Translations under genes and position numbers: made by a program | Shown here: one piece after another, positions 7,848 through 60,749 of the stretch | Position numbering within the stretch: position 1 is the first letter of the stretch | Layout of the letters: the number at the start of each line of letters is the position of its first letter | Notes under the pieces: model-generated | Told to the model about the DNA's origin: nothing | What the model saw: only the letters and a program-made list of their open reading frames with translations | The model's database searches: none | Source: Candidatus Peregrinibacteria bacterium | GTDB lineage: Bacteria; Patescibacteriota; Gracilibacteria; UM-FILTER-43-11; JACRIE01 | Assembly: GCA_016220165.1 (NCBI GenBank) | Contig: JACRIE010000040.1 | Coordinates: 16,364 to 80,363, forward strand | Direction: 5' to 3' | Length of the DNA: 64,000 bases

Positions 7848-9509
7848 ATGTTCGCCCAAATCGTTCCATTGGTTCGCGCCGGTAGGTATTTAGCTCCGAC
7901 ATTAACCTATCGCTTTCCTGCGGAGGCGTTAGCCGATCTTTTCGTCGGTTCACTGATCCGGGTTCCGCTGCGAAATCAAAAGGCGACAGGCGTGATCATT
8001 GAGATTCTTTCTGAAAATACAACCGATCTCTCTGATTCAAAAATCAAAACGGTTGATCCGTTCACGCCCTCCGTTCAATTTTCACCGCTCCAAATGGAAT
8101 GGGTGGCGTGGATTCAAAAAACCTATCATGCAACGCCTTCTCAGGCGTGGCGGCTCATGGTGCCCGTTGCTCTTCAAAAAGCCAGAAAAACGAGAACGCC
8201 CAGCCCGTTTCAGGGCGTGATTCAGAATTCCCCTGAAGGCGAAGATCATGATCTTCGCCTTCAGGGGAATTTCCGGAAACCGACCGTGCTCCAGTCGCTT
8301 CCCGGAGTCAGACCATTGGAGTATTTTAAAAAAATCGTTAAAAAAACGATTGAGGAAGGGCGTCAGGCCTTATGGCTAGTCCCGGAAAAAAGCGCGATTC
8401 CTCTGGCCATAGATTGTTTTAAAAAGTCACTGGGTGACCGGATCGCAATTTTTCATTCCGGCCTGACGGAAGCGGAAGAGGGGAGGGAATGGTGGAAAAT
8501 TTATTCTGGCCATGCGTCACTCGTTGTCGGAACGCGCTCCGCTTTGTTCGCCCCCATCCGCCATTTGGGGTGCGTGCTGATCGAGGATGAACACGCGTGG
8601 ACCTATCAGGAAGAACAGGCGCCTTATTATAACGCCCCCACGGCCGCGGCGGCTCTGGCCGAACTTCACAAGGCCCGTCTGGTCTTGAGCAGCGCGACCC
8701 CACGGGCCGAAAGTTTTTATAAAACGGCCGTGACAAAGGAATGGGAATGGGTGTCTGTAGGGACAAGGCATGCCTTGTCCCTACAGACACCGAAAATCCA
8801 TGTCGTAGACATGCGCGAAGAATTGCAAAAACGGAACTTCGGCATTTTTTCCATGCCCCTCCAAAAAAAACTGAGCGAATGTCTTGAGCAAAAAGAGCAG
8901 GCGATCCTTTTCGTGAACCTGAGAGGGGTGGCAGGGGCGATCCTTTGCCGCGATTGCGGCGCGGGGGTGCGATGCCCGAAATGCGATATTTCGCTCACGC
9001 ATCATCGGGATAAAGGGGGCATTCTTTTATGCCATCAATGCGGATATACGGAACCGCTCCCCGCGCTTTGCCCGCGCTGCCGTTCGCCGCGCATCAAAAG
9101 CGTGGGGCTTGGCACGGAACGCGTGGAGCAGGAGGCGAAAAAACTTTTTCCTTCGGCCCGCGTCCTTCGCGTGGATCAAGACACTTCTGAAGGCGAGAAT
9201 CCGCATCTTCTCCTTCAAGACTACGACATTCTGGTCGGCACCCAAAAAATAGCGGGAAGCAAACCCGTCGCGCTGGTCGGCATGGTGCTGGCCGATATCG
9301 GAATCCATGCTCCGGACTTCCGGAGCAGTGAGCGAACCTTCCAGCAGATCATGACCATGGCAGGACTATGCAAAAAATCGGGCGAGCTGATCGTACAGAC
9401 CTACGCCCCCGAACTTCCGGCGATCCGCTTCGCCGCGGAATACAGATATGAAGACTTTATGAATCAGGAATTGGAATTCCGCAAACAATGGAAACGTTCG
9501 CCGTATTAA
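7848..9509 (+). CDS. priA: primosomal protein N' (PriA) homologue lacking a Walker A motif
   Basis: Motifs: ALWLVPEKSAIPL, HSGLTEAEEGREWW, VVGTRSALFAP, IEDEH, LSSATP, the Cys4+Cys4 zinc region CRDCG..CPKCD..CHQCG..CPRCRS, GTERVEQE and PDFRSSERTFQQ. No GxxxxGK[ST] occurs anywhere in the ORF. Confidence 0.85.
   Translation: MFAQIVPLVRAGRYLAPTLTYRFPAEALADLFVGSLIRVPLRNQKATGVIIEILSENTTDLSDSKIKTVDPFTPSVQFSPLQMEWVAWIQKTYHATPSQAWRLMVPVALQKARKTRTPSPFQGVIQNSPEGEDHDLRLQGNFRKPTVLQSLPGVRPLEYFKKIVKKTIEEGRQALWLVPEKSAIPLAIDCFKKSLGDRIAIFHSGLTEAEEGREWWKIYSGHASLVVGTRSALFAPIRHLGCVLIEDEHAWTYQEEQAPYYNAPTAAAALAELHKARLVLSSATPRAESFYKTAVTKEWEWVSVGTRHALSLQTPKIHVVDMREELQKRNFGIFSMPLQKKLSECLEQKEQAILFVNLRGVAGAILCRDCGAGVRCPKCDISLTHHRDKGGILLCHQCGYTEPLPALCPRCRSPRIKSVGLGTERVEQEAKKLFPSARVLRVDQDTSEGENPHLLLQDYDILVGTQKIAGSKPVALVGMVLADIGIHAPDFRSSERTFQQIMTMAGLCKKSGELIVQTYAPELPAIRFAAEYRYEDFMNQELEFRKQWKRSPY
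8227..8270. repeat. perfect 44-bp palindrome inside priA (hairpin repeat family, copy 1)
   Basis: attcccctgaaggcgaagatca / tgatcttcgccttcaggggaat, with the symmetry centre at 8248/8249. Translated in frame as NSPEGEDHDLRLQGN. Confidence 0.9.
9188..9217. repeat. degenerate hairpin-family copy inside priA (uncertain)
   Basis: tgaaggcgagaat-ccgc-atcttctccttca, with 10 of 13 arm positions complementary. Translated as SEGENPHLLLQ. Confidence 0.3.
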
Positions 9510-9515
9510 AACTTC

Positions 9516-12500
9516 TTATTTTTTGTCCTGGGTCGCGGTTTCCATAAAGGTAACCGTTTTTTGACTGATTTCAGGCGTTCCTTCGTTGAAAACTTCAAGG
9601 ATACGAAGGAGTTCGGTATTGGTTTTGCCGCCCATAATGGTGGCCGTGATTTTATCCATATTATCAAAAATCGTATTAAGATTGGCGAATCCTTTCTCTT
9701 TCGAATTTAGCAAACCGTTATTGGTGGCAAAATTATTGTAATGACTATCCAGATAACCGCAGATTCGTTGTACCAACGCATCCGGATCGGAAGTGGCGCT
9801 TCTGGTGTCCCGGATCATCTGAAAAAACGGAGCGTCGATCATGTCCTGAAAAGCCCGTATGCGTTCAAGATTTTTTTGAACATTCCAGTCGCCGTGATTG
9901 GTTTCGCTTGCTTCCCGCGCCGTCGCGTTAAGAATGCTGTTATTCATGCGTTTGTAAATCTGGGTGTCGCGATACGCCACGTTTCCCAGAATACCTTCCA
10001 TCATGGCCATAGAAGCCATATGCCGCGTAAAATTAGCGCGAAAATTCGTTGCATCGGGGTCACGCGCGTTTTCTTCCATGTACTGCAATGTCCCGACGAT
10101 CGTGTTTTCCACGGCTGTATCTTCACGGGCCTGTTCTCCTGATTTTCCGGACAGGAACTGTTTCATGGTGTTGGCGTCCCCCATGCATGAAATGGTGCGC
10201 GCCCAGTCATGATCCCATTTGCGCATAATGACGGCCTTTCGGACGCGCTGGGTCACCATGGAGTCATTCAGAACCTGGGTCCAGTAGAAATTTTTAAACT
10301 CGCCCCGGCATTTCCCGTCTTTGTAGTCCTCGCCGAATTGCTGCTGGCATGTTCTCTTATAATCTTCCCTGGTGAGCGGAGGACGCTTGTTATAAAACCA
10401 CTGGCTGGCCGGCCAGTTATTAAGATACGTGTCGTCCAAAGCCAAAGCGCGATCCTCTTCAAGCAGACCTGAGGCCGTGCCTACCATGAGATAAAACATA
10501 GCCGCTTCCGCGTAGGATTTTCCGTTGAGGATGGCGAATTCGATGGCGGCCTCGTATTCGGCCGGATCCACCTTGCCTCCGGCAACATGCTTTTTATAAA
10601 GCTCTTCCATGCGCCCTGTAAGAACGCTCGCCAATTTTTTGTAGGACTCCTGATATTCCTTCTTATGGCTTTCATAATGGCTTTCATTGGTGCGCTCCAG
10701 CGTGGTGTATTCATCATAATCCCAGATTTCACCCAAAGCCTTGTGGAGCTTGGTGCGGAGCAAATTGGGGGAAAGGGCCATGGAGGTGTCATTCGGATCC
10801 AGAAACACCTTATTCTGGAGGCGATTCAGCACTTTCCATAATTCAGGTTTAGACCAATTGATACGGCCTTTGTCGGCCAGAATCCTCAGGATCGCCTTCA
10901 ATTCATCTTTCTCCGGAGGCAGCGGATTCTCCGCCATACTCACGATTTGCTTTTCCAGATCCCAGGCATCCATATTTTCATACCGCCCCTTCCATTCGTT
11001 CACTTCCTCCTGCTCCGCTTTCTGCATGCGGGCTTTGGATTCCTGGCCCATACTGGTCCCTGCGAACAGCGCGGAGCCCAATTTCGCCGCATGATCCGCC
11101 TTGCGTCGCTTAAAACGGCGTTCCGTGAACTCGAAAAAATCTCTGCCGACCTGGAGGATGTCCTCGACGCACAGAAAGGAGGTTTTAAGCCATAATGCCG
11201 CGAAAGGGTTGAGTATTCCTTTGTCACTGGCGGACGACGCGGATTCCAGCTCCTTCATCACGGTTCCGAACGCGTGTTTTTCAAGAAGCCCGATCCGGCT
11301 TCCAACGGTTTTCCCCAATGCTTTATTTGAAGGATGTTCATCGTATTCTTCATTTATTTTCTCCGTTTCTTCCAGATAGGTAATCATGGTGCTGATCAGC
11401 GCCCCTATTCCGGGGATGCCTCCCGCGAAAGGGGAATGCGATGCCCCGTACAGGGCTTCCTTGAGCCTTTCAAGTTTTTGCCCAAACTCTTTGGCGGAAC
11501 TCGTTCCTTCATCAGTCTCTTTTGCTCCTGTTTCTTTTTCTTCTTCTTCTTCATCCTCTCCTGCGGCCACGGCGCCGGCAATGCTCGCTTTTTCCGAGTC
11601 CGCGATGATCTCCTCCGCCGTGCGCGTGTCGGACGGATTGAAAACTTCAATTCCGCCGATCGCGGAAAAGGCGGTCAGCAAATCGCGGTGCTTAGTATTC
11701 TTGCCCACCGGCATATCCTGCATGGCATAGAGCTCGCTGATGATTTCCCCGTCAGGCCACGTATAGGGCTCTGTGGCGTCCTTTCCCGCCGTGTGCGGCT
11801 TTTTAATGGCACCGATCTCAGCCATAAACCGATCGCGGACTTCCGGCCACTTCTTGTGTCCCAAAACAAGCGCGATGTATTCCCGCCTCTGCTGTTCCGG
11901 CATGCTGTCGAACTCCAGATGACGCATCTCATGGGTCAGATCCGTGCGGAAGGCGCGCGACTCTTCCTGCGTCCGGCTTTCTTCTTCTCCGTCTTTCGGT
12001 TTGCGGATAATGATTTTCCAAACGTGCCCTTTGGTATAAAACACCATGCCGCCATTCGTGTACTGACTATAATCGTCATTAAATTTTTTAAACGGCAAAC
12101 GCTCAACATGATCTTTAAAAAACGGGTCTTTCAGAAATTCATCCGGAGAAGTTTGTGAGTTTTTCAAAACATGGACCAGCCCTTGTACCTTTTGATAGCG
12201 GATATTTTTCTCAAATTCAGGATCTTTCCAGGCGCCGCTCACACGCTCCTCAAAACTTCCCACCGCGTCAAACGTTTTTTTCAGTTGAGCCAATCCGTTC
12301 GTCAGCTCAAGCCGCTGAAGCCGCGTCAGGGCGGCAGGATCGGCCAATAGGGCTTCAAATTCATCGAGCGAACGCTGAGCGCTTCCATCGCGCAACTTTT
12401 GGATGGCTTCGCGCGCCAGCTCGGTGTGTCGCGGCGGATGATCGGGAACAGACACGCCTGTAAGTATCGCGGCTCTACGGGCTTTTTGTGATGGATTCCC

Positions 12501-13586
12501 CAAAGAAGCTTCTAAAAAATTCAAGGTTTCGGGCGTGATGGCGCCGAGCTCTTGCCGCAAAGCAATGATGGACTTTCTGGCTTCGGCAGCTTGTTCGTCT
12601 CCATGAGCGACGGATTCATATAAATCTTTGCCCATATCATGAATATTCCTTTGAATAGTCACGAAGTCTCGAAGAAGTGTCCTATAGGTTTTGGGATCCG
12701 TCCGCGCCTCAGGATCCATAAACTGCCTCTCCATCGCGTCACCCGTTTTTTCAAAACGCCGCTCCGCCTCCCCGCGTTCCTCGGAATCCAGATTTTTAAG
12801 GAATTTTTGCGCCTCGGCATAAAGCGCCTCCTTCTTTTTTCGCAGATAGTCCTGAAGATGTCCGATCTGATACTGACGAATCTCCAGGGTTCGCGCTCGC
12901 TCACGCTCATAATCTTCCGGAATCTCCTCTCGCGCGTTCAAAACCAGATTTTTTCCGACGATCGCCCCTAGTTCTTCCCGAAAACCCCGACGCTGGTTGC
13001 CAACCTCAATGCGATCATTCGAGGGAAGACCGGTCTCCAGGGAATTAATATACGTATTGAGAGAACGAAGCTGATCCATTCGTCCTTCCATATCCTGATC
13101 CGTCGTAATAGGCTGACGAAGGGCTTCCAGCTCATTCAATTCCTGCTGAAACTCCCGCCGTTTTGTCAAATCCAGTTCGCCCTGCAAACGCGCCTGCAGA
13201 CCTACAACCTCGCGGCCGATAATGTCCGTGGGCGCGCCGATATCGGCGCGCGGCTGAAAGGGGATGCCCTTTCCAGCTCTTTTCTGTATTTGCTCATCGA
13301 TTTCCCCAAAATTCGCACCGTTTTCAACAAGATACTCCCGTTCCTTCTGCAATTCTTCCAGAAGGCTCCTCTGCACTTCGGACAATTTCTCCCGCAATGC
13401 CTTCCCCAGGCGTATGTCGCTCTCTCGTTCGATCTGCACAACCAAATCTGCCTCTTCTCTTTCAAGCGAAGCCCTGGCGCCACGAACCATATCAATACCC
13501 CTTTTGGAATCCTTTAAAAACGCGAAAAATTCGCCGAGAAAAGGATTTTTTTCATACAACCCGTGGCAGAAACATTTTAAGTACAT
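9516..13586 (-). CDS. 1356-aa protein of unknown function with a coiled-coil-rich N-terminus, an HExxH motif and an acidic tract
   Basis: Single uninterrupted ORF with no signal peptide. HEMRH occurs in TDLTHEMRHLEFDS, and an acidic run in GEDEEEEEKETGAKETDEG. No P-loop. The conserved leader hairpin sits immediately upstream. Confidence 0.8.
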   Translation of the reverse strand: MYLKCFCHGLYEKNPFLGEFFAFLKDSKRGIDMVRGARASLEREEADLVVQIERESDIRLGKALREKLSEVQRSLLEELQKEREYLVENGANFGEIDEQIQKRAGKGIPFQPRADIGAPTDIIGREVVGLQARLQGELDLTKRREFQQELNELEALRQPITTDQDMEGRMDQLRSLNTYINSLETGLPSNDRIEVGNQRRGFREELGAIVGKNLVLNAREEIPEDYERERARTLEIRQYQIGHLQDYLRKKKEALYAEAQKFLKNLDSEERGEAERRFEKTGDAMERQFMDPEARTDPKTYRTLLRDFVTIQRNIHDMGKDLYESVAHGDEQAAEARKSIIALRQELGAITPETLNFLEASLGNPSQKARRAAILTGVSVPDHPPRHTELAREAIQKLRDGSAQRSLDEFEALLADPAALTRLQRLELTNGLAQLKKTFDAVGSFEERVSGAWKDPEFEKNIRYQKVQGLVHVLKNSQTSPDEFLKDPFFKDHVERLPFKKFNDDYSQYTNGGMVFYTKGHVWKIIIRKPKDGEEESRTQEESRAFRTDLTHEMRHLEFDSMPEQQRREYIALVLGHKKWPEVRDRFMAEIGAIKKPHTAGKDATEPYTWPDGEIISELYAMQDMPVGKNTKHRDLLTAFSAIGGIEVFNPSDTRTAEEIIADSEKASIAGAVAAGEDEEEEEKETGAKETDEGTSSAKEFGQKLERLKEALYGASHSPFAGGIPGIGALISTMITYLEETEKINEEYDEHPSNKALGKTVGSRIGLLEKHAFGTVMKELESASSASDKGILNPFAALWLKTSFLCVEDILQVGRDFFEFTERRFKRRKADHAAKLGSALFAGTSMGQESKARMQKAEQEEVNEWKGRYENMDAWDLEKQIVSMAENPLPPEKDELKAILRILADKGRINWSKPELWKVLNRLQNKVFLDPNDTSMALSPNLLRTKLHKALGEIWDYDEYTTLERTNESHYESHKKEYQESYKKLASVLTGRMEELYKKHVAGGKVDPAEYEAAIEFAILNGKSYAEAAMFYLMVGTASGLLEEDRALALDDTYLNNWPASQWFYNKRPPLTREDYKRTCQQQFGEDYKDGKCRGEFKNFYWTQVLNDSMVTQRVRKAVIMRKWDHDWARTISCMGDANTMKQFLSGKSGEQAREDTAVENTIVGTLQYMEENARDPDATNFRANFTRHMASMAMMEGILGNVAYRDTQIYKRMNNSILNATAREASETNHGDWNVQKNLERIRAFQDMIDAPFFQMIRDTRSATSDPDALVQRICGYLDSHYNNFATNNGLLNSKEKGFANLNTIFDNMDKITATIMGGKTNTELLRILEVFNEGTPEISQKTVTFMETATQDKK

Positions 13587-13665
13587 AATTCAGTGACAAG
13601 TGACGAGTCAATAGAGACGAGTAACGAGTTGCAAGTTTTTTCTCGTCGCTCGTCACTAAAAATAT
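13587..13665 (-). promoter_or_regulatory. structured 5' leader, copy A of a duplicated promoter-leader module
   Basis: In gene orientation: agtgacgagcgacgag-aaaaaacttgcaa-ctcgttactcgtctctattgactcgtcacttgtcactgaatt-ATG. Positions 13610-13647 are 38/38 identical (as reverse complement) to 55070-55107. Confidence 0.7.
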
Positions 13666-13671
13666 CTAATT

Positions 13672-13700
13672 ATTATACCAAAAAATGGCCTTTTTATCAA
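13672..13700 (-). promoter_or_regulatory. sigma70-type promoter (TTGATA-17-TGgTATAAT) for the 1356-aa gene
   Basis: The -35 tatcaa is at 13695-13700 and the -10 attata at 13672-13677 (plus-strand spelling). The TGn extension is at 13678-13680. The layout matches the promoter at 55017-55045. Confidence 0.55.
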
Positions 13701-13782
13701 TGCTTTTCAGCATTTACTCCTCAGGTTTCAGAAAACAGGTTCGGGTCGCTTATTTAGACATCACTAGCCCGATTTTGTGATT

Positions 13783-17971: not shown

Positions 17972-20125
17972 CTAGTCTCCGCTATACGTCACCCAATTAT
18001 TCAACTCGATCATCTTCATTCGATAAATAGTTTCAGCCACTTCGGCGCGGGTCATGCCTTTCGCGGGCTCCAGGCGAGGATTATGATCCTCGCCTTCAGT
18101 AAGTGGCATCACGTTTTTCTTGTTGGCAAGAAATGCGTAGGACGCGAACCATGAATCCGTTGGGACATCTTCATAAGGCTTTACCTCTGGAGGAGCGGAA
18201 TCCATATTGTTCGTCTTAAAAAGGATTTTCAGGTATTCCGCCCGGGTCACGATTTGTGACGGTCGGAACGTGCCGTCGGCGTAGCCTCCGACAATATTCT
18301 TTTGAAGTGCCGTTGCCAAAAAAGACGCGTACCAATCGTTATTATTCGTATCCTTGAAATTCAAAGAGGCTCCCTTTTGGGCTTCAATATTAAAAGCAAG
18401 CATCAGCATCTTAAGGGCTTCGGCGCGATTCACGGTTTGATTGGGACGGAAACTTCCATCCGCGTATCCTCCTACGATTCCATTCTCTTTCAGAAATTTA
18501 ATCGATTTGAAATAGGGGTTCGTGGCGCTGATATCCACAAAAAGATTGCCGTTTTCACTGAAGAGTGGATTGCTTTCACCAATGAGCGCGCCGTTTTGCG
18601 CGCGAACCACAATCGTTTCGTCCGTCAGCGCAGTCATGAAAACAGACGCGGCTCCTTCCTTAAAATCTTTGAATTCCAATGCTTCCGGTTTAAAACGGGC
18701 TGAGCCTTGCTTGGCTGTCAATTGGATGATCCCTGTAAAATTATAAACGGGCGTCGGTTTTCCATTGGCGTCGATCGCCTTAATCACGAGCTCCTTGGGA
18801 ACCCCTTTAACGAAATGCCCGTCCTGCTCAATCTTAAAACCGGCAACCGGGTTCGCCTGCTCGATAAAGTTAACTTCATAAGCGCTTTTTCCGATCGTAA
18901 TCAAACTGCGGCCGAGCGTTTCACTGCGAACCGTGAATTGCGCCACGCGATTCACAAAATCGGACGATTTGAGATGTCGGTTACTCACGCGGGCGTCGCC
19001 TTCCACCTGGACATCGACCGTATCGTCAGACTTCCATTGTGAGACTTGATCCTTTTCATCCTCGATGTAGAGATTGATGCTACTCCCCAAAAGCGCGAAG
19101 TGTTCTCCGGTAATTTTAAAAACCGAAAGGTCAAGGGGGTTCGCCGCTTCCACAACCGATGAAGGAGAGGCGATCGGACTGGATTCCGGAGCAGCTGGTT
19201 CCGGAGTCACGCCTTGAGGAGCCACGGTTGTTTCTGAAGGCACTTCCTCGGTAGAAGCAATGCCGGAATAAACGGATTTCAGATATTTATCGAGATAGGG
19301 GAAAGGATCGATCGTATTTCTTTCAGCATTGTCTTTTCCGAGTCCGGCGCTCACCGCGTCAAAAAAACTGAGGCCGGCCTTTTGAGCTTCGTTCCAGGTG
19401 AAAGGCCAATAAGGATGCCAGGGGGCTGAATCGCGGTCGATTTGAAAGTGCAGATGAGGGGTCGTAGCCGTCCCTGTTTTGCCGCTGCGGCCGATCATAT
19501 CGCCCTTTTTCACATTCTGCCCTTCAACGACATTGACATCGCTCATGTGGGCATAAACGGAATAAAGAACAGCGGTCTGCCCGGGATAATCCGGATCCGG
19601 CGTATCCGGGTGACGGACGACGATATGATGGCCGAAACCGCTTTCCTGTACAGTCGACTTAATCACGCGACCGTTGGCAATGGCATAAATAGGCGTTCCT
19701 TCCGGAAGTTTTAAATCAACGGCCAGATGGCTTCCCGAATATTCTTCATGGTTGTTGTTATAAGCCGCCATGTAAACCACGGCGTAAGTGATTTTACTGT
19801 TACGGATTCGATCGCTTTCAGGGTCTTTCCAAAGCAATTTACTGTCCGGATAGCGCAAATCGGAAAGCGTGTAAGGCGGCAGATCGATCAGCTGATTTTC
19901 AGGAATCTTTTGATACGTCGGCATAGCGCTGCCGGTGACAAGAAATTTATTCCAATCCGGCACTTTTTGAACCGGATACGTGGTGCCGTTAAAAGGCTGT
20001 GGCGGCTCTAAAAGCGTTGCGCGAAACCATTCACTCGTTTTCTCCCCATAATAAACAATCACCAAAAAAAACAAAGTTCCTGTGATGAGTCCTGCGTATT
20101 TAAGGAGTTTTTTGTTTTTGAACAT
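17972..20125 (-). CDS. M23 family metallopeptidase with three C-terminal SLH domains
   Basis: M23 motifs: HLAVDLK..GTPIYAIANGRV, GHHIVVRH, YAHMSDV and GKTGTATTPHLHFQI. SLH repeats: ATNPYFKSIKFLKENGIVGGYADGSFRPNQTVNRAEAL, then two more. Started at MFKNKKLL (20125) so that it does not overlap recF. Confidence 0.85.
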   Translation of the reverse strand: MFKNKKLLKYAGLITGTLFFLVIVYYGEKTSEWFRATLLEPPQPFNGTTYPVQKVPDWNKFLVTGSAMPTYQKIPENQLIDLPPYTLSDLRYPDSKLLWKDPESDRIRNSKITYAVVYMAAYNNNHEEYSGSHLAVDLKLPEGTPIYAIANGRVIKSTVQESGFGHHIVVRHPDTPDPDYPGQTAVLYSVYAHMSDVNVVEGQNVKKGDMIGRSGKTGTATTPHLHFQIDRDSAPWHPYWPFTWNEAQKAGLSFFDAVSAGLGKDNAERNTIDPFPYLDKYLKSVYSGIASTEEVPSETTVAPQGVTPEPAAPESSPIASPSSVVEAANPLDLSVFKITGEHFALLGSSINLYIEDEKDQVSQWKSDDTVDVQVEGDARVSNRHLKSSDFVNRVAQFTVRSETLGRSLITIGKSAYEVNFIEQANPVAGFKIEQDGHFVKGVPKELVIKAIDANGKPTPVYNFTGIIQLTAKQGSARFKPEALEFKDFKEGAASVFMTALTDETIVVRAQNGALIGESNPLFSENGNLFVDISATNPYFKSIKFLKENGIVGGYADGSFRPNQTVNRAEALKMLMLAFNIEAQKGASLNFKDTNNNDWYASFLATALQKNIVGGYADGTFRPSQIVTRAEYLKILFKTNNMDSAPPEVKPYEDVPTDSWFASYAFLANKKNVMPLTEGEDHNPRLEPAKGMTRAEVAETIYRMKMIELNNWVTYSGD
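18070..18099. repeat. hairpin repeat family copy inside the M23/SLH peptidase gene
   Basis: ccAGGCGAGGAT-tatg-ATCCTCGCCTtcag. Read on the minus strand as TEGEDHNPRLEP. Confidence 0.8.
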
Positions 20126-20192
20126 AGTTGTTTTATACTCATCATGATTAATCTGAATATTATACCAATTTTTAAGCCAAAAATCAATCCTC

Positions 20193-21317
20193 ATGCGTCT
20201 TAAAACCCTGATCATTTCAGGATTTCGCAATCTGAAGCCTCTTAAACTCAATTTTTCAGACGAAAAAAACCTGAATGTCTTTATCGGAGCGAATGGACAG
20301 GGAAAAACTAATCTTTTGGAAGCAATTTACCTGTTGGCTTTCAGTAAATCGTTTCGAACCTCAGAGAATCAGGATTTGATCGGTTTCTCCGAAGACTTCT
20401 GCTCCGTGGAAGGGGAGTTCTCGGCAAAAACGAAAGAATCACCTGAAGGCGCGAATCGCGATTCGCGCCTTCAGGTGATTGTCACAAAAAATCCCCCGGA
20501 AAAAGGACTTAAAATCAACGGAGTCTCCAGTAGATCCGTAGACTTTATAGGACACCTTAAAGCGGTCTTTTTCAATCCGGATGACCTCGAGATGATCCAT
20601 GGCGCCCCTCGGCTCAGGCGACGATATCTGGATCTTCTTTTGCTTCAGCTGAACCATCGGTATCTCGTGGATCTAATGGACTACAACGCCTTAATAAAAC
20701 AACGCAATGCGCTGCTGCGTCAGATCAAGGCAGGGGAGAGTTCCGCCAACCATCTGAGCGTATGGGATGAAAAATGCGTGCCCCTGGGGTACAGCATCGT
20801 AAAACGGCGCCTGGAAGCCCTTTCTCAAATCAAAAAAAAGGTTCATCAATTTTACACTCAAATAAGTCAGACAAAAGAGGCAATCGATGTGGAATACCGA
20901 TTTTCCACAACGGATTTTCCGGCCAACGAACAGAAATTTGCCAGGATGATGCAGGATTCCCGGTCGCGGGACATTGAAATGCGTGCGACAACCATAGGAC
21001 CGCATCGCGACGATCTTCTATTCCTATTAGACAAAAAACCATTTCGAAATTTCGGTTCTCGCGGGCAATGGCGAAGTCTTGTATTGGCTTTAAAATTCAC
21101 GGAGATTGAATTGCTCCAGGAACAGTCAAAAACAGAACCGCTCCTCCTGCTGGACGATGTTTTTTCGGAGCTGGACGAATCGCACCAAAGACACCTCTTT
21201 GAAGCGGCCGTCGGAATTCAAACGCTGGTGACAACCACGCATGATTCCTTTTTGGACCTAATCAAGGACGAAAAATCAGTCTTTAAAGTTCAAAATGGGG
21301 CGATCACGATTCAATAG
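20193..21317 (+). CDS. recF: DNA replication and repair protein RecF
   Basis: MRLKTLIISGFRNLKPLKLNF...FIGANGQGKTNLLEAIYLLA (Walker A), GPHRDDL, GSRGQWRSLVLALK and LLLDDVFSELD. Confidence 0.92.
   Translation: MRLKTLIISGFRNLKPLKLNFSDEKNLNVFIGANGQGKTNLLEAIYLLAFSKSFRTSENQDLIGFSEDFCSVEGEFSAKTKESPEGANRDSRLQVIVTKNPPEKGLKINGVSSRSVDFIGHLKAVFFNPDDLEMIHGAPRLRRRYLDLLLLQLNHRYLVDLMDYNALIKQRNALLRQIKAGESSANHLSVWDEKCVPLGYSIVKRRLEALSQIKKKVHQFYTQISQTKEAIDVEYRFSTTDFPANEQKFARMMQDSRSRDIEMRATTIGPHRDDLLFLLDKKPFRNFGSRGQWRSLVLALKFTEIELLQEQSKTEPLLLLDDVFSELDESHQRHLFEAAVGIQTLVTTTHDSFLDLIKDEKSVFKVQNGAITIQ
20438..20477. repeat. perfect 40-bp palindrome inside recF (hairpin repeat family)
   Basis: tcacctgaaggcgcgaatcg / cgattcgcgccttcaggtga. 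Translated as SPEGANRDSRLQV. Confidence 0.9.
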
Positions 21318-23002: not shown

Positions 23003-25935
23003 ACGCCCAACAGCAAGCGGCAGTGCGGCACCGCAACGGACCTTTGCTCGTGGTCGCGGGAGCGGGCACAGGGAAAACAAGCGTGATCACGCATCGGATC
23101 GCTCATATTTTAAACGAGGGATGGTGCAGACACGACGAAATTCTGGCGCTCACGTTCACGGATAAAGCGACTCAGGAAATTGAGGAACGGGTCGATCAGC
23201 TCATGCCGCTGGGGTATGAAGCCATCACCATTCGGACCTTTCATGGTTTTTGCGACGATCTCTTGCGCGAATTTGGGATCGACATCGGCATCAATCCGAA
23301 TTTTCGGATCTTACAGGGAGTGGCGCACTGGCTATTCCTTAAAGAGCGCCTATTTGAATTCGATTTGGATTATTATCGTCCTTTGGGAAATCCAACCGCG
23401 TTTATTGACGCCTTCATTAAGGCGTTTGCGCGATTCAAAGAAGAATTAAATACGCCGGAAGACGCGCTGGCATTTGCCGAAAAGAAGACTGCCGAAGCCA
23501 AAACCGACGAAGAAAAAATAGAGGCCAAACGGCTTGTGGAATTGACTACGGCATACGGACGATATCAGGAATTGCTCACGGAAAACGATTGTCTGGATTT
23601 CGCGGATCTCCAAATAAAAACGCTGGAGCTATTCGAAAAACGACCCAATATCCTTGCCCATCTGCAAAAGCGGTATCGCTACATTCTTGTAGATGAATAT
23701 CAGGACACCAACATCGCGCAAAACACGATCGTGGATCGTTTAGTCGAAAAACACCGTAATCTGACCGTGGTGGGGGATGATGATCAGTCCATTTATAAAT
23801 TCCGCGGCGCGGCCATTTCAAATATCCTCCAATTCCAGGAGCGGTATCCCGACCTCACGAAAATCGTGCTCACGGAAAATTATCGCTCCGGCCAATCTAT
23901 CCTCGATTTCGCGTACGCGTCCATTCAGCACAACAATCCCGATCGCCTTGAGATCAAATCAGGCGTGGATAAACGCCTGAAAGGCCGGCGCCCCAGCACG
24001 CCGGATTCCATTCATTTAATTCACTCAACGACGCTGGACCAAGAGGTCGAAACCGTGATTTCGGAAATCCAGAATTTGGTAGGGACGTGCCACGGCACGT
24101 CCTCCCTAATATCCCTATCCGAAATCGCGGTGTTGTCTCGCACCAACGCTCAACTGCAGGCCTTTACCGAAGGATTCCAAAAGGCAGGCATTCCTTACAA
24201 TTTTATCTCAGAACGCGGACTCTATCGCAAAGAAGAAATCCGCGATCTCGTGACGCTCCTGCGCGTGCTCGCGAATCCAACGGACGACATCAGCTTCTAT
24301 CGCGTGCTACGGATGCCATTCTGGAAACTTTCCATGGAACTAATCATGACGCTCATCGCGGAAGGAAGTAAGAACTATAAAGGTATCTATCAGCAGATTA
24401 AAGCTAAAGAAGAATGTCGTCTTTTAAGCGATACCTTCCGCGATCTGCTGGAATTTTCAAAAAATCATACCGCTGGCGAAACGCTTTATCGGTTCACGGA
24501 AACCGTACAGCTGTATCAACAGCTATTGGCTCAGGGAACCATTGAAACGGAAGAGCAAATTCTGAATATCGCCACGTTTTTTAATAAAATCCGCGAATTT
24601 GAACAAAATTCGGAAAACAAAACAATACTCGACTTTGTGGAATATCTTGATCTGGCCGAAGAAGCCGGCGAGAACCCAGCGGCCAGTTTTGAACTTCAAA
24701 ATCGCGAGGGCGTTTTCATATCCACCGTGCACGGCGCCAAAGGACTGGAATTCCACACGGTTTTTTTGACGAATCTCACGAACGATCGCTTTCCCGGATC
24801 CCGTCGCGGCGATTCAATTGAAATTCCGGACGAATTCGTGCACGAAATTCTGACGCATTCGGACACGCATCTTCAGGAAGAACGGAGGCTTTTTTATGTC
24901 GCGGTCACGCGCGCCAAAGAACGCCTGTATTTGCTTCACAGCGACTTTTACGGTCAGAGCTTTTCAAAAAATCCGCGTAAGAAAAAACGCTCGCGCTTCA
25001 TCGACGAAATTTTCTCCCCTGAAGGCGAGGATCATAATCTTCGCCTTCATATCAACGCGATCGAAAAAACCGCGGAAGGAATTGGGCAATTCATAAAGCC
25101 CTCTTCAAAAAATTCCCCTGAAGGCGAGGATCCCCATCCTCGCCTGGACCAAGAGCCCCTTCGAACCATCACCCAATTCAGCTATTCCCAATTAATGCAA
25201 TTCCAAACGTGCCCGCGCCAATACGAATACCAATACGTGCTGAAAATCCCGCAGCCCATGAGCGCGAACTTGAGCTTTGGCTCCACCATGCATACGACCT
25301 TGCAGAAGTTTTACAAGCACGTCTTGCAGCAAAAACAAACATCGCTTTTTCAGGAATTTGAGCCAAAGACGTCTCTCGAAGAACTTCTGAAAATTTACGA
25401 CGAAAACTGGATCGCCCAGGGATACGAGAGTAAAGCCCACATAGAGGTTAGAAAAACCCGCGGTCGCGAAATTTTGACTCAATTCCACGAACATTTTAAA
25501 GAAGACGTGTCTCACGTCCGATTCTTGGAAAAAAGCTTCAAGCTCAAAATCGGAAACTACACGCTCAGCGGTCGCATCGACCGCGCGGATGATTTGCCGG
25601 ACGGAACCCTCGAAATCATCGACTACAAAACCGGTCGGACGCGCACGGAAAAAGAGGTGGAAAACGATCTTCAGCTCTTCCTCTATGCCATCGCGGCGCA
25701 CGACTGTTTTAGCCTTAAGGCCTCACGCCTGACGCTTTATTTCCTCGACGAAGACGTAAAAATTTCCACCGCGCCGGATGAGGCTAAATTCGAGCAAGTC
25801 AAACGCGACGTCTCGGACATCGCGGACGCCGTCAACCGCTCCGACTTCTCTCCGACCCCAAGCCAATTCAAATGCCGTCAATGCCCTTACAACAAAATCT
25901 GCGAATCTTCTTTAGGTTTTATGGTCTTCAGGTAG
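22990..25935 (+). CDS. UvrD/PcrA-type superfamily 1 helicase fused to a C-terminal PD-(D/E)xK (Cas4/AddB-like) nuclease domain
   Basis: GTG start. Helicase motifs: LNAQQQAAV, VAGAGTGKTSV, TFHGFC, ILVDEYQDTN, VVGDDDQSIYKFRGA, TENYRS, TVHGAKGLEF, YVAVTRAKERL and SRFIDEI. The C-terminus has CPRQYEY...IDRAD..IIDYKTG...CRQCPYNKIC. Confidence 0.88.
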   Translation: MHPLNAQQQAAVRHRNGPLLVVAGAGTGKTSVITHRIAHILNEGWCRHDEILALTFTDKATQEIEERVDQLMPLGYEAITIRTFHGFCDDLLREFGIDIGINPNFRILQGVAHWLFLKERLFEFDLDYYRPLGNPTAFIDAFIKAFARFKEELNTPEDALAFAEKKTAEAKTDEEKIEAKRLVELTTAYGRYQELLTENDCLDFADLQIKTLELFEKRPNILAHLQKRYRYILVDEYQDTNIAQNTIVDRLVEKHRNLTVVGDDDQSIYKFRGAAISNILQFQERYPDLTKIVLTENYRSGQSILDFAYASIQHNNPDRLEIKSGVDKRLKGRRPSTPDSIHLIHSTTLDQEVETVISEIQNLVGTCHGTSSLISLSEIAVLSRTNAQLQAFTEGFQKAGIPYNFISERGLYRKEEIRDLVTLLRVLANPTDDISFYRVLRMPFWKLSMELIMTLIAEGSKNYKGIYQQIKAKEECRLLSDTFRDLLEFSKNHTAGETLYRFTETVQLYQQLLAQGTIETEEQILNIATFFNKIREFEQNSENKTILDFVEYLDLAEEAGENPAASFELQNREGVFISTVHGAKGLEFHTVFLTNLTNDRFPGSRRGDSIEIPDEFVHEILTHSDTHLQEERRLFYVAVTRAKERLYLLHSDFYGQSFSKNPRKKKRSRFIDEIFSPEGEDHNLRLHINAIEKTAEGIGQFIKPSSKNSPEGEDPHPRLDQEPLRTITQFSYSQLMQFQTCPRQYEYQYVLKIPQPMSANLSFGSTMHTTLQKFYKHVLQQKQTSLFQEFEPKTSLEELLKIYDENWIAQGYESKAHIEVRKTRGREILTQFHEHFKEDVSHVRFLEKSFKLKIGNYTLSGRIDRADDLPDGTLEIIDYKTGRTRTEKEVENDLQLFLYAIAAHDCFSLKASRLTLYFLDEDVKISTAPDEAKFEQVKRDVSDIADAVNRSDFSPTPSQFKCRQCPYNKICESSLGFMVFR
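25019..25049. repeat. hairpin repeat family copy inside the helicase-nuclease gene (first of two)
   Basis: tgaaggcgaggat-cata-atcttcgccttca, with one G.T position. Translated as SPEGEDHNLRLH. Confidence 0.8.
25122..25145. repeat. hairpin repeat family copy inside the helicase-nuclease gene (second of two)
   Basis: AGGCGAGGAT-cccc-ATCCTCGCCT, preceded by cccctga. Translated as SPEGEDPHPRLD. Confidence 0.8.
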
Positions 25936-26016
25936 AAACCAACCCGAATTGATATAAAATCGATTACAGATTCAGATCGTTTTAGACTATAATTTTTGCT
26001 GTAATCACTTTTTTAT

Positions 26017-27177
26017 ATGACTTTGATCACTATTCTCATTCTTATAGGTTTGGCAGCCATTGGCTTTTTAGTATATCAGCTCACGCAGGAATTTAAGCGT
26101 GCGCAACAGGGCAAAACCGAAGACAAAAGCCTTCTCATGCTCCAGCAGCAGCTCGATTCGCTCCGCAAGACGTTCCAGGAGGGGATGAAGAATCAGGACA
26201 AAACGCTCAACGAGCAACTCAATCGTTCGCAGGAAGCCCTTTCCAAACAGTTCGCGGCAAGCTCCCAGATCGTCAAAGAAGTGACGAACAATGTAAAAAG
26301 CGTGACGGAAAAGCTGACCCAGCTAAGCGAAACCAATAAACAGGTCGTGGGCTTCGCGGAACAGCTCAAAACGCTCGAAAACACGCTGAGGAACCCCAAA
26401 CAGCGTGGCATTTTAGGTGAATTTTTCCTTGAGAACATGCTGTCCAACGTGCTTCCGCCCAGCAGTTTCCAGATGCAATACGCGTTCCCCGGTGGCGAAA
26501 TCGTGGACGCCGCCATTTTCGTGAAGGATAAAATCATCCCCGTGGACGCCAAATTCTCGCTCGAAAACTACAATCGCATCATGGAAGAAAAAGACGACGC
26601 CTCCCGTGACAATCTGCAGAAGGAATTCAAATCCGACCTCAAAAAACGCATCGACGAGACCTCCAAATACGTCCGTCCGGAGAAAGGGACTACCGATTTC
26701 GCCTTCATGTTCATTCCGGCGGATGGCGTTTTCTATAATCTTCTCACGCACAAAGTGGGCGCGCTGGAAGTGAATACGACCGATTTGATCGATTACGCCT
26801 TCAAAAAACGGGTGATTCTGGTCTCGCCCATGACATTTTACGCCTATCTACAGACTGTCATGCATGCCCTTCGCGCGCTCGTCATCGAAGAGTCGGCCAA
26901 AGAGATCCAAAAGCGGGTGGGGGATTTAGGCCGCCATTTAAACGCGTACCAGGACTATTTCAAACGATTGGGCGGACATTTAGGAACCACGGTCAATACC
27001 TACAATAACGCCGGCAAGGAACTGGGGAAAATAGACAAGGACGTAGTCAAAATCACCGAAGGCGCCGTGGGCGGCGCCATTGAAATCCCCCTCATCGAGA
27101 AGCCTGAAGCGGATGAAGAAACGGAAATGAAAGTAACGTTAAAAGAAGCAAAAATCAAAACAACAAGAGACGAGTGA
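26017..27177 (+). CDS. rmuC: DNA recombination protein RmuC
   Basis: N-terminal TM helix, coiled coil, then the RmuC core (LRNPKQRGILGEFFLENMLSNVLP, IPVDAKFSLENY, FMFIPADGVFY, ILVSPMTFYAYL). Confidence 0.88.
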   Translation: MTLITILILIGLAAIGFLVYQLTQEFKRAQQGKTEDKSLLMLQQQLDSLRKTFQEGMKNQDKTLNEQLNRSQEALSKQFAASSQIVKEVTNNVKSVTEKLTQLSETNKQVVGFAEQLKTLENTLRNPKQRGILGEFFLENMLSNVLPPSSFQMQYAFPGGEIVDAAIFVKDKIIPVDAKFSLENYNRIMEEKDDASRDNLQKEFKSDLKKRIDETSKYVRPEKGTTDFAFMFIPADGVFYNLLTHKVGALEVNTTDLIDYAFKKRVILVSPMTFYAYLQTVMHALRALVIEESAKEIQKRVGDLGRHLNAYQDYFKRLGGHLGTTVNTYNNAGKELGKIDKDVVKITEGAVGGAIEIPLIEKPEADEETEMKVTLKEAKIKTTRDE

Positions 27178-27215
27178 CTAGTGACGAGTAAATGCGTTTC
27201 TCGTCTCTCGTCTCT
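27166..27215 (+). promoter_or_regulatory. GACGAG-type hairpin (copy C), overlapping the rmuC stop and upstream of the pilin-like operon
   Basis: AGAGACGAG-tgactagt-GACGAG-taaatgcgttt-CTCGTC-t-CTCGTCTCT. It shares AGTGACnAGTGACGAG ... CTCGTnnCTCGTCTCT with the leaders at 13587-13665 and 55052-55139, but the loop differs. Confidence 0.6.
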
Positions 27216-27222
27216 AATCCGC

Positions 27223-27251
27223 TGGTTTTTTGGCTTTAGAAATGGTATAAT
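27223..27251 (+). promoter_or_regulatory. extended -10 promoter for the pilin-like operon (TGgTATAAT)
   Basis: TGG at 27243-27245 and TATAAT at 27246-27251, with a weak -35 tggttt at 27223-27228. Confidence 0.5.
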
Positions 27252-27274
27252 AAATAGATTTAATCTATCTTTTG

Positions 27275-29835: not shown

Positions 29836-29848
29836 AAAGTCAAATTCA

Positions 29849-29986
29849 TTATCAAGAGTCCGCTGAGGGAACGGCCCTATGAAGCGGCAGCAACCGCCTT
29901 CTGAGGCGCCATGAACCGCCTGGTTCAGGGCCCTACAAGATGGCAAGGTGCTAACTCCGTCCTGCCTTAAGCGGGAAAGATAAGTT
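29849..29986 (+). promoter_or_regulatory. SAM-I (S-box) riboswitch aptamer
   Basis: TTATCAAGAG-tccgc-TGAGGGAacGGCCCtATGAAgcggCaGCAACC...(long P3 insert)...GGTGCTAActCC-gtcctgccttaagcggga-AAGATAAG. All conserved S-box blocks are present, and P1 is TTATC/GATAA. Confidence 0.85.
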
Positions 29987-33414: not shown

Positions 33415-33443
33415 TTGAAAATAATCGGTTTTTTTGTTATAAT
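33415..33443 (+). promoter_or_regulatory. extended -10 promoter (TTGAAA-17-TGtTATAAT) upstream of the sortase gene
   Basis: TTGAAA at 33415-33420, TGT at 33435-33437 and TATAAT at 33438-33443. Confidence 0.55.
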
Positions 33444-46533: not shown

Positions 46534-46538
46534 AAAAT

Positions 46539-46570
46539 AAGAAGACGAGGATATATATCCTCGTCTTCTT
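46539..46570. terminator. bidirectional terminator hairpin, AT-shifted member of the hairpin repeat family
   Basis: aagaagacgaggatat / atatcctcgtcttctt, a perfect 32-bp palindrome between convergent mltG and the 688-aa gene, flanked by A-run and T-run. It differs from the 51511 copy by a compensatory G>A / C>T pair. Confidence 0.7.
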
Positions 46571-51441: not shown

Positions 51442-51510
51442 TTAAATTATAAAATAAACTGATTCGCATTCTAAACTATTTTTGAATTGAATGCCGGGCT
51501 GTGATCCTTT

Positions 51511-51548
51511 AAGATGAAGGCGAGGATATATATCCTCGCCTTCATCTT
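51511..51548. terminator. terminator hairpin after secA, member of the hairpin repeat family
   Basis: aagatgaaggcgaggatat / atatcctcgccttcatctt, a perfect 38-bp palindrome followed by tttttatt. ORF-track start 51514 for hrcA lies inside it and is rejected. Confidence 0.7.
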
Positions 51549-54930: not shown

Positions 54931-55016
54931 AAACTCAAAGTTAAGATTAATTTTTTTAAATTTAACACAAGATTCTACCCCGCGCAAATGGATTGTACGG
55001 TTCACACCGTAAACCC

Positions 55017-55045
55017 TTGAGTTTTAGGCTTATTTTTGCTATAAT
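55017..55045 (+). promoter_or_regulatory. sigma70-type promoter (TTGAGT-17-TGcTATAAT) for the 55140-60141 operon
   Basis: The -35 is at 55017-55022, TGc at 55037-55039 and TATAAT at 55040-55045. Its architecture and spacer resemble 13672-13700 on the other strand. Confidence 0.6.
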
Positions 55046-55051
55046 AATCAG

Positions 55052-55139
55052 ATAAATCAAGTGACGAGTGACGAGAAAAAACTTGCAACTCGTTACTCGT
55101 CTCTATTAGTTCGTCACTGGTCACTCGTCACTAAGTAAA
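55052..55139 (+). promoter_or_regulatory. structured 5' leader, copy B of the duplicated promoter-leader module
   Basis: agtgacgagtgacgag-aaaaaacttgcaa-ctcgttactcgtctctattagttcgtcactggtcactcgtcactaagtaaa-ATG. Hairpin 55063-55075/55089-55101 (13 bp including one G.U) competes with the perfect 13-bp pairing 55060-55072/55120-55132. Confidence 0.7.
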
Positions 55140-55640
55140 ATGGATATGAACGATCTCGAAATTGCAGAAAATCAGGATCCGGTGCTACTCGCCTGGCAGG
55201 CGCCGGAATTCATCAGCCATCCACGGGGGAAATTATGGTACACAGTCGTGGGCCTTCTGACCGCTGGAATCGTTGTTTATTCGCTCATAACGCAATCGGT
55301 CACGACAGCCATTGTGTTTTTGCTGCTGGCCACGGTTTACGTGCTGACCCGTAATCAGAAGCCAAGGACAATCGATATCAAAATCACGCAGCTGGGAATT
55401 TGGGTTCATCGGACGTTCTATCCCTACAACATGATCCGTTCCTTTTGGGTGGTATACACTCCGCCGTTTGTTCAGACGCTCAACCTTGAAATCGCCAAAA
55501 AATCCCTTCCGCACGTCGCGATTCAGCTCAACGGTCAGGAACCCGTTCCGATCCATGAGATTTTAAGCAAAAAAATCCCTGAAGCCGAAGGGCGCGAGGA
55601 AAGCCTCATGGAAATCGTCACCAGACTTTTCCGACTTTAA
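55140..55640 (+). CDS. small two-TM membrane protein, unknown function
   Basis: 166 aa. W.APEF..H.R...WY is followed by two TM helices (VVGLLTAGIVVYSLI and AIVFLLLATVYVL) and a beta-rich C-terminal domain. Confidence 0.7.
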   Translation: MDMNDLEIAENQDPVLLAWQAPEFISHPRGKLWYTVVGLLTAGIVVYSLITQSVTTAIVFLLLATVYVLTRNQKPRTIDIKITQLGIWVHRTFYPYNMIRSFWVVYTPPFVQTLNLEIAKKSLPHVAIQLNGQEPVPIHEILSKKIPEAEGREESLMEIVTRLFRL

Positions 55641-55654
55641 CAGTTTAATTCATT

Positions 55655-57853: not shown

Positions 57854-57864
57854 AAAATCGATCC

Positions 57865-58125
57865 GTGTCCATCGAACAAACCGACATCATTGACCGCCAG
57901 GCGAACCAGGCCCAAATCAACCGGCACCGCGAAGAAGAGGAAACGGACTCCCAGCAATCCGCCTCAGGCGGGCGGCAGCGGAAACAACGACAGTCCGACC
58001 CCTCCCCTGCCTCGGGCATGGCCAAAGCCGCCATCGGCGGCATGAAAAAAAAATTACTGATCGCGGTCGGGGCCACCGGCGGCGTCGCGGGAATAGGCTC
58101 CCTGATTAATTATCTTATCGGCTAG
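57865..58125 (+). CDS. small tail-anchored membrane protein
   Basis: GTG start, a charged N-terminus, and a C-terminal TM helix (LLIAVGATGGVAGIGSLINYLIG). Tightly packed between its neighbours (11-nt and 3-nt gaps). Confidence 0.45.
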   Translation: MSIEQTDIIDRQANQAQINRHREEEETDSQQSASGGRQRKQRQSDPSPASGMAKAAIGGMKKKLLIAVGATGGVAGIGSLINYLIG

Positions 58126-58128
58126 CCC

Positions 58129-60741: not shown

Positions 60742-60749
60742 TTTTCAAT

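Follow-up and report, generated by a model that had tools for sequence, protein, structure and literature searches.

Genes and heptad elements at the locus

The stretch of DNA analysed here, 64 kb of the Peregrinibacteria-like genome assembly GCA_016220165.1 (hereafter the window, to which all in-genome copy counts refer), carries three copies of a hairpin-forming element built of AGTGACG and CGTCACT heptads. Copy A (13592–13657, minus strand) precedes an open reading frame (ORF) of 1356 amino acids (aa; 9516–13586, minus strand) with no function assigned. The ORF starts at ATG 13586 or, according to the gene call of the Logan assembly, at TTG 13559, and the length of the copy A leader is uncertain to the same extent. 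Copy B (55060–55132, plus strand) precedes a four-ORF operon (166, 732, 86 and 670 aa; 55140–60141, plus strand) that is conserved in Peregrinibacteria and adjoins a DUF87/TrwB-type ATPase gene in the relatives. Copy C (27166–27215, plus strand) overlaps the 3′ end of rmuC, which was identified by Pfam RmuC. It is followed by a promoter and five genes resembling type IV secretion system (T4SS) pilins, in which the T4SS_pilin domain was detected. The ORFs of the copy B operon received no Pfam, NCBIfam or PDB assignment, and an earlier remark that the genes downstream of copies A and B lack a recognisable function held in sequence searches of these three resources.

All three copies lie next to a promoter. 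Those of copies A and B were identified in a promoter scan as sigma-70-type with an extended −10 box carrying TG. The promoter of the 1356-aa gene (13672–13700, minus strand) consists of −35 TTGATA (13700–13695), a 17-nucleotide (nt) spacer, and TGG with −10 TATAAT (13677–13672), followed by AATTAGAT, and matches the consensus at 11 of 12 positions. The promoter of the four-ORF operon (55017–55045, plus strand) has −35 TTGAGT, a 17-nt spacer, and TGC with −10 TATAAT (55040–55045), followed by AATCAGAT (10/12 matches). The pilin-like cluster is preceded by a consensus-type promoter (27223–27259, plus strand) with TGG and TATAAT (27246–27251), followed by AAATAGAT.

A preliminary description of this DNA had reported that the promoter and structured leader of the 1356-aa gene recur 41 kb away on the other strand, with heptad-spaced AGTGAC/GTCACT boxes and an identical core of 38 nt. 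Alignment and a whole-window repeat search confirmed this reading of both stretches. The segments 13592–13706 and 55011–55125 form the longest inverted pair of the window (115 nt, 82% complementary). The order common to 13700→13587 and 55017–55139 is −35 TTGAnn, a 17-nt spacer, TGnTATAAT, AATYAGATA, AGTGACGAGYGACGAG, AAAAAACTTGCAA, CTCGTTACTCGTCTCTATT, GTCACT heptads and ATG. The 38-mer GACGAGAAAAAACTTGCAACTCGTTACTCGTCTCTATT is identical at 13647→13610 (minus strand) and 55070–55107 (plus strand), and the element is indeed built of the boxes described. The pair was found to have a third member at a gene 3′ end (copy C), and the actual repeat unit proved to span 66–73 nt: the likeness of A and B sets in precisely at AGTGAC and breaks off at the last GTCACT, with sharp edges on both sides. 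The 16-mer AGTGACGAGYGACGAG, with up to three mismatches, had 11 matches in the window against 0.33 expected, a count reached in 0 of 100 shuffles, and all 11 were confined to the three loci 13592–13657, 27166–27215 and 55060–55132.

Anatomy of the three copies

In copies A and B alike, a loop of 13 nt separates the 5′ arm from a degenerate 3′ arm, and two or three perfect distal heptads follow. Copy A (66 nt) begins 14 nt past the −10 box and ends 5 nt short of the ATG. Its 5′ arm AGTGACGAGCGACGAG (13657–13642) is followed by the loop AAAAAACTTGCAA (13641–13629), the degenerate 3′ arm CTCGTTACTCGTCTCT (13628–13613), the spacer ATTGA (13612–13608), and the distal heptads CTCGTCACTTGTCACT (13607–13592). 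Copy B (73 nt) also begins 14 nt past the −10 box and ends 7 nt short of the ATG; it comprises the 5′ arm AGTGACGAGTGACGAG (55060–55075), the loop (55076–55088), the degenerate 3′ arm (55089–55104), the spacer ATTAGTT (55105–55111), and the distal heptads CGTCACTGGTCACTCGTCACT (55112–55132). Copy C (50 nt) consists of AGAGACGAGTGACTAGTGACGAG, the loop TAAATGCGTTT and CTCGTCTCTCGTCTCT, and is more diverged than the closely related pair A and B. Its first arm supplies the last three codons of rmuC (RDE) and the TGA stop (27175–27177), and its end lies 7 nt ahead of the −35 position of the pilin-operon promoter.

The element ends in terminal inverted repeats, AGTGACGAG...CTCGTCACT, and the tandem 7-nt units near the start codons were confirmed with TRF and pattern scans. 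The hairpins fold with minimum free energies of −26 to −28 kcal/mol and z-scores of −3.3 to −3.6 (copy A, −26 kcal/mol, z = −3.6), and copy C folds as well as A and B. We also note that A and B are inverted copies 41 kb apart; if they recombined, the segment between them would be inverted and the two promoters exchanged.

Comparison with relatives

The named homologues among the closest matches of RmuC and of two lineage-specific proteins were all from "Candidatus Peregrinibacteria". The 166-aa protein encoded after copy B has four orthologues (42–62% identity), the contigs of which carry the same four-gene operon. In these relatives (L114, L116, L119 and L131), the leader of the operon consists of a consensus promoter followed by 22–28 nt of A-rich sequence up to the ATG, and none of the four orthologous leaders contains heptads. 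If the element is removed from the window, the distance from the −10 box to the ATG becomes 21 nt for copy B (55060–55132 removed) and 19 nt for copy A (13592–13657 removed). Since removal restores a normal spacing of 19–21 nt, the element behaves as an insertion. The 1356-aa gene has a single, distant homologue, and thus the comparison of orthologous sites covers the loci of copies B and C.

The site of copy C was compared with CP064978.1, a complete Peregrinibacteria genome that shows synteny with the window over the helicase gene, rmuC, five pilin genes, metS, the sortase gene, an ftsA-like gene and purA. The hairpin is absent at its rmuC-pilin junction, where the rmuC stop codon runs directly into the promoter. 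Heptad arrays were found neither in the sampled sequence of the relatives (L114–L119, L131 and L132) nor, in L130, in the roughly 2 kb by which this genome continues past the window. Presence and absence thus differ between relatives at the orthologous sites of copies B and C. On these sequence comparisons, the hairpin is an insertion.

The hairpin family in other phyla

The pattern GTGACNAGYGACGAG-N8-16-CTCGTNWCTCGT, derived from the window, was used to scan 596 Gb of sequence, in which about 0.04 chance matches are expected by our own calculation. More than 111 loci were found among the matches listed. Their hosts, again among the matches listed, are Acidobacteriota (mainly Pyrinomonadaceae, Blastocatellia), Chloroflexota, Planctomycetota, Nitrospirota, Desulfobacterota, Cloacimonadota, Abditibacteriota, Verrucomicrobiota, Bacteroidota, Gammaproteobacteria and one Streptomyces; that Patescibacteria do not appear in this list carries no meaning. 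The typical unit elsewhere is 50–85 nt long and has four AGTGACN heptads before, and four or five NGTCACT heptads after, a variable loop. By crude ORF calling, the flanking genes at the loci listed are tandem in 52 cases, convergent in 19 and divergent in 11, and eight hairpins are intragenic.

At the loci listed, the upstream stop codon lies at a median of −3.5 nt from the hairpin, i.e. 3.5 nt inside it. This closeness is partly automatic because (AGTGACG)n, as read directly from its sequence, holds TGA in all three frames; (CGTCACT)n holds no stop. The hairpin consequently offers a three-frame stop to reading frames arriving from either side. A short spacing between the hairpin and the downstream ORF, also seen in the other phyla, was discarded as largely an artefact, as the stops within the arms make ORF calls restart just after them.

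The preliminary description had proposed to look for covariation. Copies A and B are too similar to each other to reveal any, and the wider family shows no excess of compensatory pairs: in 111 hairpins the base at heptad position seven on one arm is almost independent of that on the other, with 41 Watson-Crick pairs observed and 36 expected. No asymmetry between sense and antisense folding energy was detected in the 52 co-directional loci (p = 0.65), and a T run on a given side accompanies about 20% of the hairpins in other phyla. Only one match came from a viral contig, and the family is therefore not phage-borne; blastn gave no match in plasmids. At the gathering threshold, Rfam had no family matching the element in the window and 18 loci. 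With the limit relaxed to E ≤ 10, copies A and B as well as a Pyrinomonadaceae hairpin gave only sub-threshold matches to generic hairpins. We found no description of the AGTGACG heptad unit or of its arrays in the literature searched. Two further metagenome scans were made. The lineage-specific hairpin with a GTCTCT arm had 0 matches, and the consensus promoter followed by a heptad had eight, all of them chance matches lacking arrays, so that neither scan added copies from this genome.

The family of heptad hairpins is unexpectedly broad and apparently undescribed. Mobility, horizontal transfer and a conserved binding factor are all possible sources of its identity across phyla.

Predicted effect in the two leaders

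Shine-Dalgarno motifs are absent ahead of the start codons in this genome, and a leader hairpin should matter here because translation starts without Shine-Dalgarno pairing. In both leaders the element would be transcribed from about position +8 and would form a stable stem-loop. Its 5′ arm has two pairing options. It may pair with the degenerate proximal arm, with one G-U and one U-U in copy B and an additional C-A in copy A. Pairing with the perfect distal heptads, the last of which stops 5–7 nt ahead of the AUG, is the more stable option. The computed cost of opening the region from −15 to +12 around the AUG rises from 1.3 kcal/mol without the element to 5.9 kcal/mol with it for copy A, and from 4.9 to 8.7 kcal/mol for copy B, so that a partial occlusion of the start region (+3.8 to +4.6 kcal/mol) is predicted. 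Because initiation without a Shine-Dalgarno sequence needs an open, A/U-rich start region and the opening cost rises, the stem-loop would make this region harder to open and reduce translation.

Correia and repetitive extragenic palindromic (REP) elements change mRNA processing or stability, and by analogy the present element may do the same. Both A and B lie in divergent intergenic regions and therefore cannot terminate an upstream gene. No terminator-like site was called at A, B or C, and at copy C the T run begins 11 nt downstream of the stem. An intrinsic terminator or attenuator was accordingly rejected, there being no U tract right after the hairpin.

Interpretation and alternatives

We interpret the element as a dispersed palindrome of AGTGACG/CGTCACT heptads, akin to REP elements and miniature inverted-repeat transposable elements (MITEs), which has been inserted in two very short, A-rich leaders lacking Shine-Dalgarno sequences and probably dampens translation there; we put the probability of this interpretation at roughly two thirds. 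The element would have been inserted at least three times in the 64 kb, with copies A and B in the leaders of strongly promoted units and the diverged copy C at the 3′ end of rmuC. The preliminary description had named a generic dispersed repeat, with no bias toward gene 5′ ends in the complete genome, as the outcome that would undo its regulatory reading, and what we found in 64 kb of this genome comes close to it.

Several observations weigh against a dispersed palindrome. The accessible sequence of 64 kb holds only three copies, each no more than 50 nt away from an extended −10 consensus promoter. By our own count, a copy accompanies three of six such promoters, whereas the other intergenic gaps, about 16 in number, have none (p is roughly 0.01, a value to be read with the fact that the gaps are few and most of them hold promoters). 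Of the three element-bearing units, two are connected with T4SS-like pilus genes. Copies A and B share their offsets, 14 nt after the −10 box and 5–7 nt before the ATG, as well as the identical core, which could reflect selection, targeted insertion or gene conversion. None of the copies is bounded by a target-site duplication, since the flanks ATTTTT|..|GAATT, AAATCA|..|AAGTAA and AACAACA|..|AATCCG contain no direct repeat. Nor was a linked mobilising gene found: in an all-against-all BLAST of 733 ORFs from 111 loci, no family occurred in more than eight loci. At one orthologous site (L016, L053, L088 and L102), belonging to at least three Acidobacteriota genomes of Pyrinomonadaceae/Blastocatellaceae type and a fourth, more distant one, the hairpin stands at the same position with conserved arms and a diverged loop. 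Its retention there suggests function rather than selfish spread. Finally, the leader model assumes a transcription start about 7 nt after the −10 box, in which case the transcript opens about 7–8 nt before the 5′ arm, and its conclusion that the element probably lowers translation moderately is a thermodynamic prediction.

Part of these facts would suit another explanation, in which the element is a dedicated cis-regulatory device. A factor recognising AGTGACG/CGTCACT on DNA or on the transcript would then co-regulate cell-surface and pilus operons, as a roadblock or translational repressor at +8 of copies A and B, and from upstream at the pilin promoter of copy C. The preliminary description had favoured such a device and expected it to define a regulon. 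What stands of that proposal is a shared non-coding element between a strong promoter and the start of two unrelated units, with two alternative folds; the regulon does not follow, as the element is absent from the leaders of four relatives, occurs at a gene 3′ end in copy C, and is dispersed elsewhere. The promoter proximity, the identical placement of A and B with respect to −10 box and ATG, the two pairings open to the 5′ arm, the position of copy C before the five pilin-like genes, and the DUF87/TrwB ATPase gene beside the copy B operon in relatives are all in keeping with a device. The nearly independent seventh positions, moreover, suggest recognition of sequence over pairing alone. However, the orthologous leaders and junction lack the element although their promoters and operons are kept, and copy C lies 5′ of its promoter and overlaps a stop codon. 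The wider family is found chiefly at gene 3′ ends and shows no sense/antisense folding asymmetry, no adjacent regulator gene emerged from domain searches of the window, and Rfam contains no match. The proximity to promoters is itself partly unavoidable, since the window has about 22 intergenic gaps in 64 kb and most of them contain promoters. The same facts would fit insertion targeted to the neighbourhood of strong promoters, or selection for sites that a compact genome tolerates. We regard a dedicated device as unlikely.

A more speculative proposal is that the AGTGACG hairpin is a sequence-specific module spread over about ten phyla and read by an unknown factor, in effect a two-way stop module that has been co-opted beside strong promoters here. 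If so, the module would end translation and form a hairpin at the RNA 3′ end from either side, and in this Peregrinibacterium it would co-regulate cell-surface and pilus operons from their leaders. The basis of this idea is the three-frame stop described above, which a reading frame meets first from either side. We consider it a long shot.

It is still less probable that the whole promoter-plus-leader cassette of about 115 nt was duplicated, or homogenised by gene conversion, and that the likeness of the two promoters is also due to common descent. The 115-nt alignment at 82% and the AGGC..TTTTTG common to both spacers speak for a cassette. Outside the element, however, identity is down to what is seen among unrelated promoters from different genomes. 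Leaving TG and TATAAT aside, the promoters of A and B are 60% identical; of the 78 pairs that 13 extended −10 promoters from the window and its relatives can form, 36% are at least as similar, and each of the two resembles a CP064978.1 promoter (0.71 and 0.74) more closely than it resembles the other. Promoters of relatives also show the AGGC and T-rich features of the spacer, as do those at 20164 and 27246 of the window, and the position of the copy B promoter matches that of the promoter 5′ of the orthologous operon in the four relatives. Because A and B are no closer than other promoter pairs, the shared spacer "aggc..atttttg" and the post-−10 "aatYagata" are features of a promoter class. 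The common form, TTGA-17-TGnTATAATAATnAGAT, is the consensus to which strong promoters in this lineage of Peregrinibacteria ordinarily conform. It is of the TGnTATAATAAT type, the copy A promoter fits the lineage consensus TTGAtTTTTaGGC..TTTGgTATAATAATnAGAT, and the extended −10 promoters of the window (13677−, 20164−, 27246+, 33438+ and 55040+) and of the relatives' contigs alike read TTGAtTTTTaGGc..aaTTTGgTATAATAATnaGATtt. Judged by their sequences, the promoters of A and B are near-consensus promoters of the lineage that were not copied along with the element, and the duplication of promoter and leader put forward in the preliminary description was not borne out for the promoter half.

Sites of this consensus, which these Peregrinibacteria conserve well, were noted in the window at 13672–13700, 20135–20164 (minus strand), 27223–27259, 33415–33443 and 55017–55053, and in relatives at ~9950–9990 and ~8480–8526 (minus strand) of L114, ~1742–1785 of L116, ~246–290 of L119 and ~11172–11215 of L131. 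They are followed by very short A-rich leaders, 13–28 nt from the −10 box to the ATG, without Shine-Dalgarno sequences.

An assembly artefact, whether through chimeric joining or because the assembler collapsed or duplicated a repeat, is hardly credible. Short-read contigs do end at the element, the Logan contigs of run SRR12113407 stopping within the shared core at 13638 and 55078 because a repeat longer than the k-mer breaks the de Bruijn graph. But this independent assembly is 100% identical to the window and has each downstream half of the element continuous with its gene, the upstream halves have promoters of the expected type, and copy C and more than 111 loci elsewhere, long-read assemblies included, share the architecture.

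Relation to known elements

The dispersed palindrome is best filed as a new variety of the REP/MITE type, built from tandem heptads. REP elements, together with BIME and REPIN, are repetitive extragenic palindromes of Proteobacteria mobilised by RAYT (Y1) transposases. Like these palindromes of 20–70 nt, the present element is a short, imperfect palindrome of intergenic DNA, often just after stop codons or between convergent genes, with stable stem-loops in the transcript and a presence that varies between related genomes. It differs in that its arms are tandem 7-nt repeats and not unique sequence, and in that two copies occupy 5′ leaders. REP sequences are, moreover, species-specific, while the arm sequence found here occurs in about ten phyla. 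Domain searches revealed neither a transposase nor a RAYT domain in any ORF of the window; as no RAYT gene was found in the window or the sampled loci, membership of REP/REPIN proper is not established.

With the Correia elements (NEMIS/CREE) of Neisseria and MITEs such as ERIC, BOX and RUP, the element shares its small size, lack of coding capacity, terminal inverted repeats, and landing between promoter and start. Correia elements are also co-transcribed, form hairpins, and alter the mRNA processing, stability or expression of the adjacent gene, and we regard them as the best functional analogue for copies A and B. They are longer (100–155 bp), duplicate a TA target, carry IHF and promoter motifs, and are limited to one genus, in contrast to the 50–73 nt, heptad-repeat arms and missing target duplication of the present element. 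It is on the target-site duplication that the element departs from MITEs proper. The window contains no parent insertion sequence with matching ends.

Heptanucleotide repeats with an intergenic location, in particular the TAACTGA arrays, are the closest parallels in the literature searched. They are known from cyanobacteria (short tandemly repeated repetitive, STRR, sequences), from the TAACTGA arrays, and from Geobacter; the genome of Geobacter metallireducens has families of them (PMC2700814). According to MacGregor (2015, PMC4679880), the TAACTGA repeats of Beggiatoaceae, Cyanobacteria and Bacteroidetes form 7-nt arrays a few nt 5′ of starts in leaders without ribosome-binding sites, are spread over distant phyla without explanation, and comprise 169 direct sets and one indirect set. 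Copies A and B resemble them in their arrays near the start of leaders devoid of ribosome-binding sites and in the distribution of the family over distant phyla. The unit here is AGTGACG, unlike that of the TAACTGA and STRR repeats, and the arrays are inverted pairs that form hairpins, whereas the TAACTGA arrays are reported to be nearly always direct.

A riboswitch or another cis-regulatory RNA of the Rfam kind would likewise have a stable structure between promoter and start with two exclusive pairings. Here, the orthologous leaders show no conservation, no family match was obtained, and the element is not associated with one gene function. As to an expression platform, neither a terminator nor a Shine-Dalgarno platform was found, and a partial occlusion of the start region is predicted. 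The RNA switch suggested in the preliminary description is not supported by these results. Placement typical of an operator was seen in the boxes about 7 nt past the assumed start site (A and B) or 7 nt upstream of the −35 position (C), but the element is absent from the orthologous promoters of relatives and no regulator gene is adjacent in the window. In terms of class, riboswitch, operator and terminator all fail on conservation or anatomy.

Other features of the window

A second, unrelated palindromic family, about CCTGAAGGCGAGGATnnnnATCCTCGCCTTCAGG, has eight copies in the window, at 8229–8263, 9183–9217, 18064–18098, 20439–20473, 25015–25049, 25114–25148, 46536–46568 and 51510–51544. Six of them fall within housekeeping ORFs, two each in those for PriA and a UvrD/PD-(D/E)XK helicase and one each in those for an SLH/M23 protein and a RecF-like protein, and share one frame, giving SPEGEDH(D/N)LRLQ-like peptides. 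The two helicase copies coincide with gaps of 8 and 10 residues relative to the orthologous helicase of CP064978.1 and are therefore in-frame insertions, which resemble the Rickettsia palindromic elements. A related palindrome may exist in L114 near 8637–8676. The independent Logan contigs break at this family as well as at the heptad element. Another inverted repeat of heptads (60743–60851), with (TTTCTAA)x5 at 60743–60776 and (ATTAGAA)x3.7 at 60820–60845, is located between recR and an inositol-phosphatase-family gene, and Logan contigs end inside it.

Within the predicted 1356-aa ORF, about 50 nt from its start, we noted a terminator-like hairpin, GCGAATTTTTCGC followed by GTTTTTAAAG, at 13522–13534 (minus strand). 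A SAM-I riboswitch (29846–29986, plus strand; 69.4 bits) lies 5′ of the methyltransferase, homocysteine S-methyltransferase and metS genes. In two relatives, a gene of the bAvd/23S_rRNA_IVP family is found directly 5′ of rmuC (L131, 9586–9948, there placed between the helicase gene and rmuC; L132, 3343–3720); the counterpart of this site in the window (25936–26016) is an 81-nt gap only. The family is an accessory gene of diversity-generating retroelements. The housekeeping genes of the window encode S15, PriA, PPDK, RecF, S1, the UvrD/PD-(D/E)XK helicase, MetRS, AdSS, SHMT, DnaX, Der, SecA, HrcA, RecR and SmpB, and there are also genes for a sortase, SLH-domain proteins and T4SS pilins.

Implications

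Genomes of the candidate phyla radiation are regarded as streamlined and repeat-poor. The heptad element breaks short-read assemblies, and the promoter consensus described here could aid the annotation of Peregrinibacteria genomes. The tempting reading of the two leaders as a new riboswitch or operator is replaced by a testable one, the insertion of a small palindrome. The AGTGACG hairpin family, found across many phyla and usually touching stop codons, merits a systematic survey.

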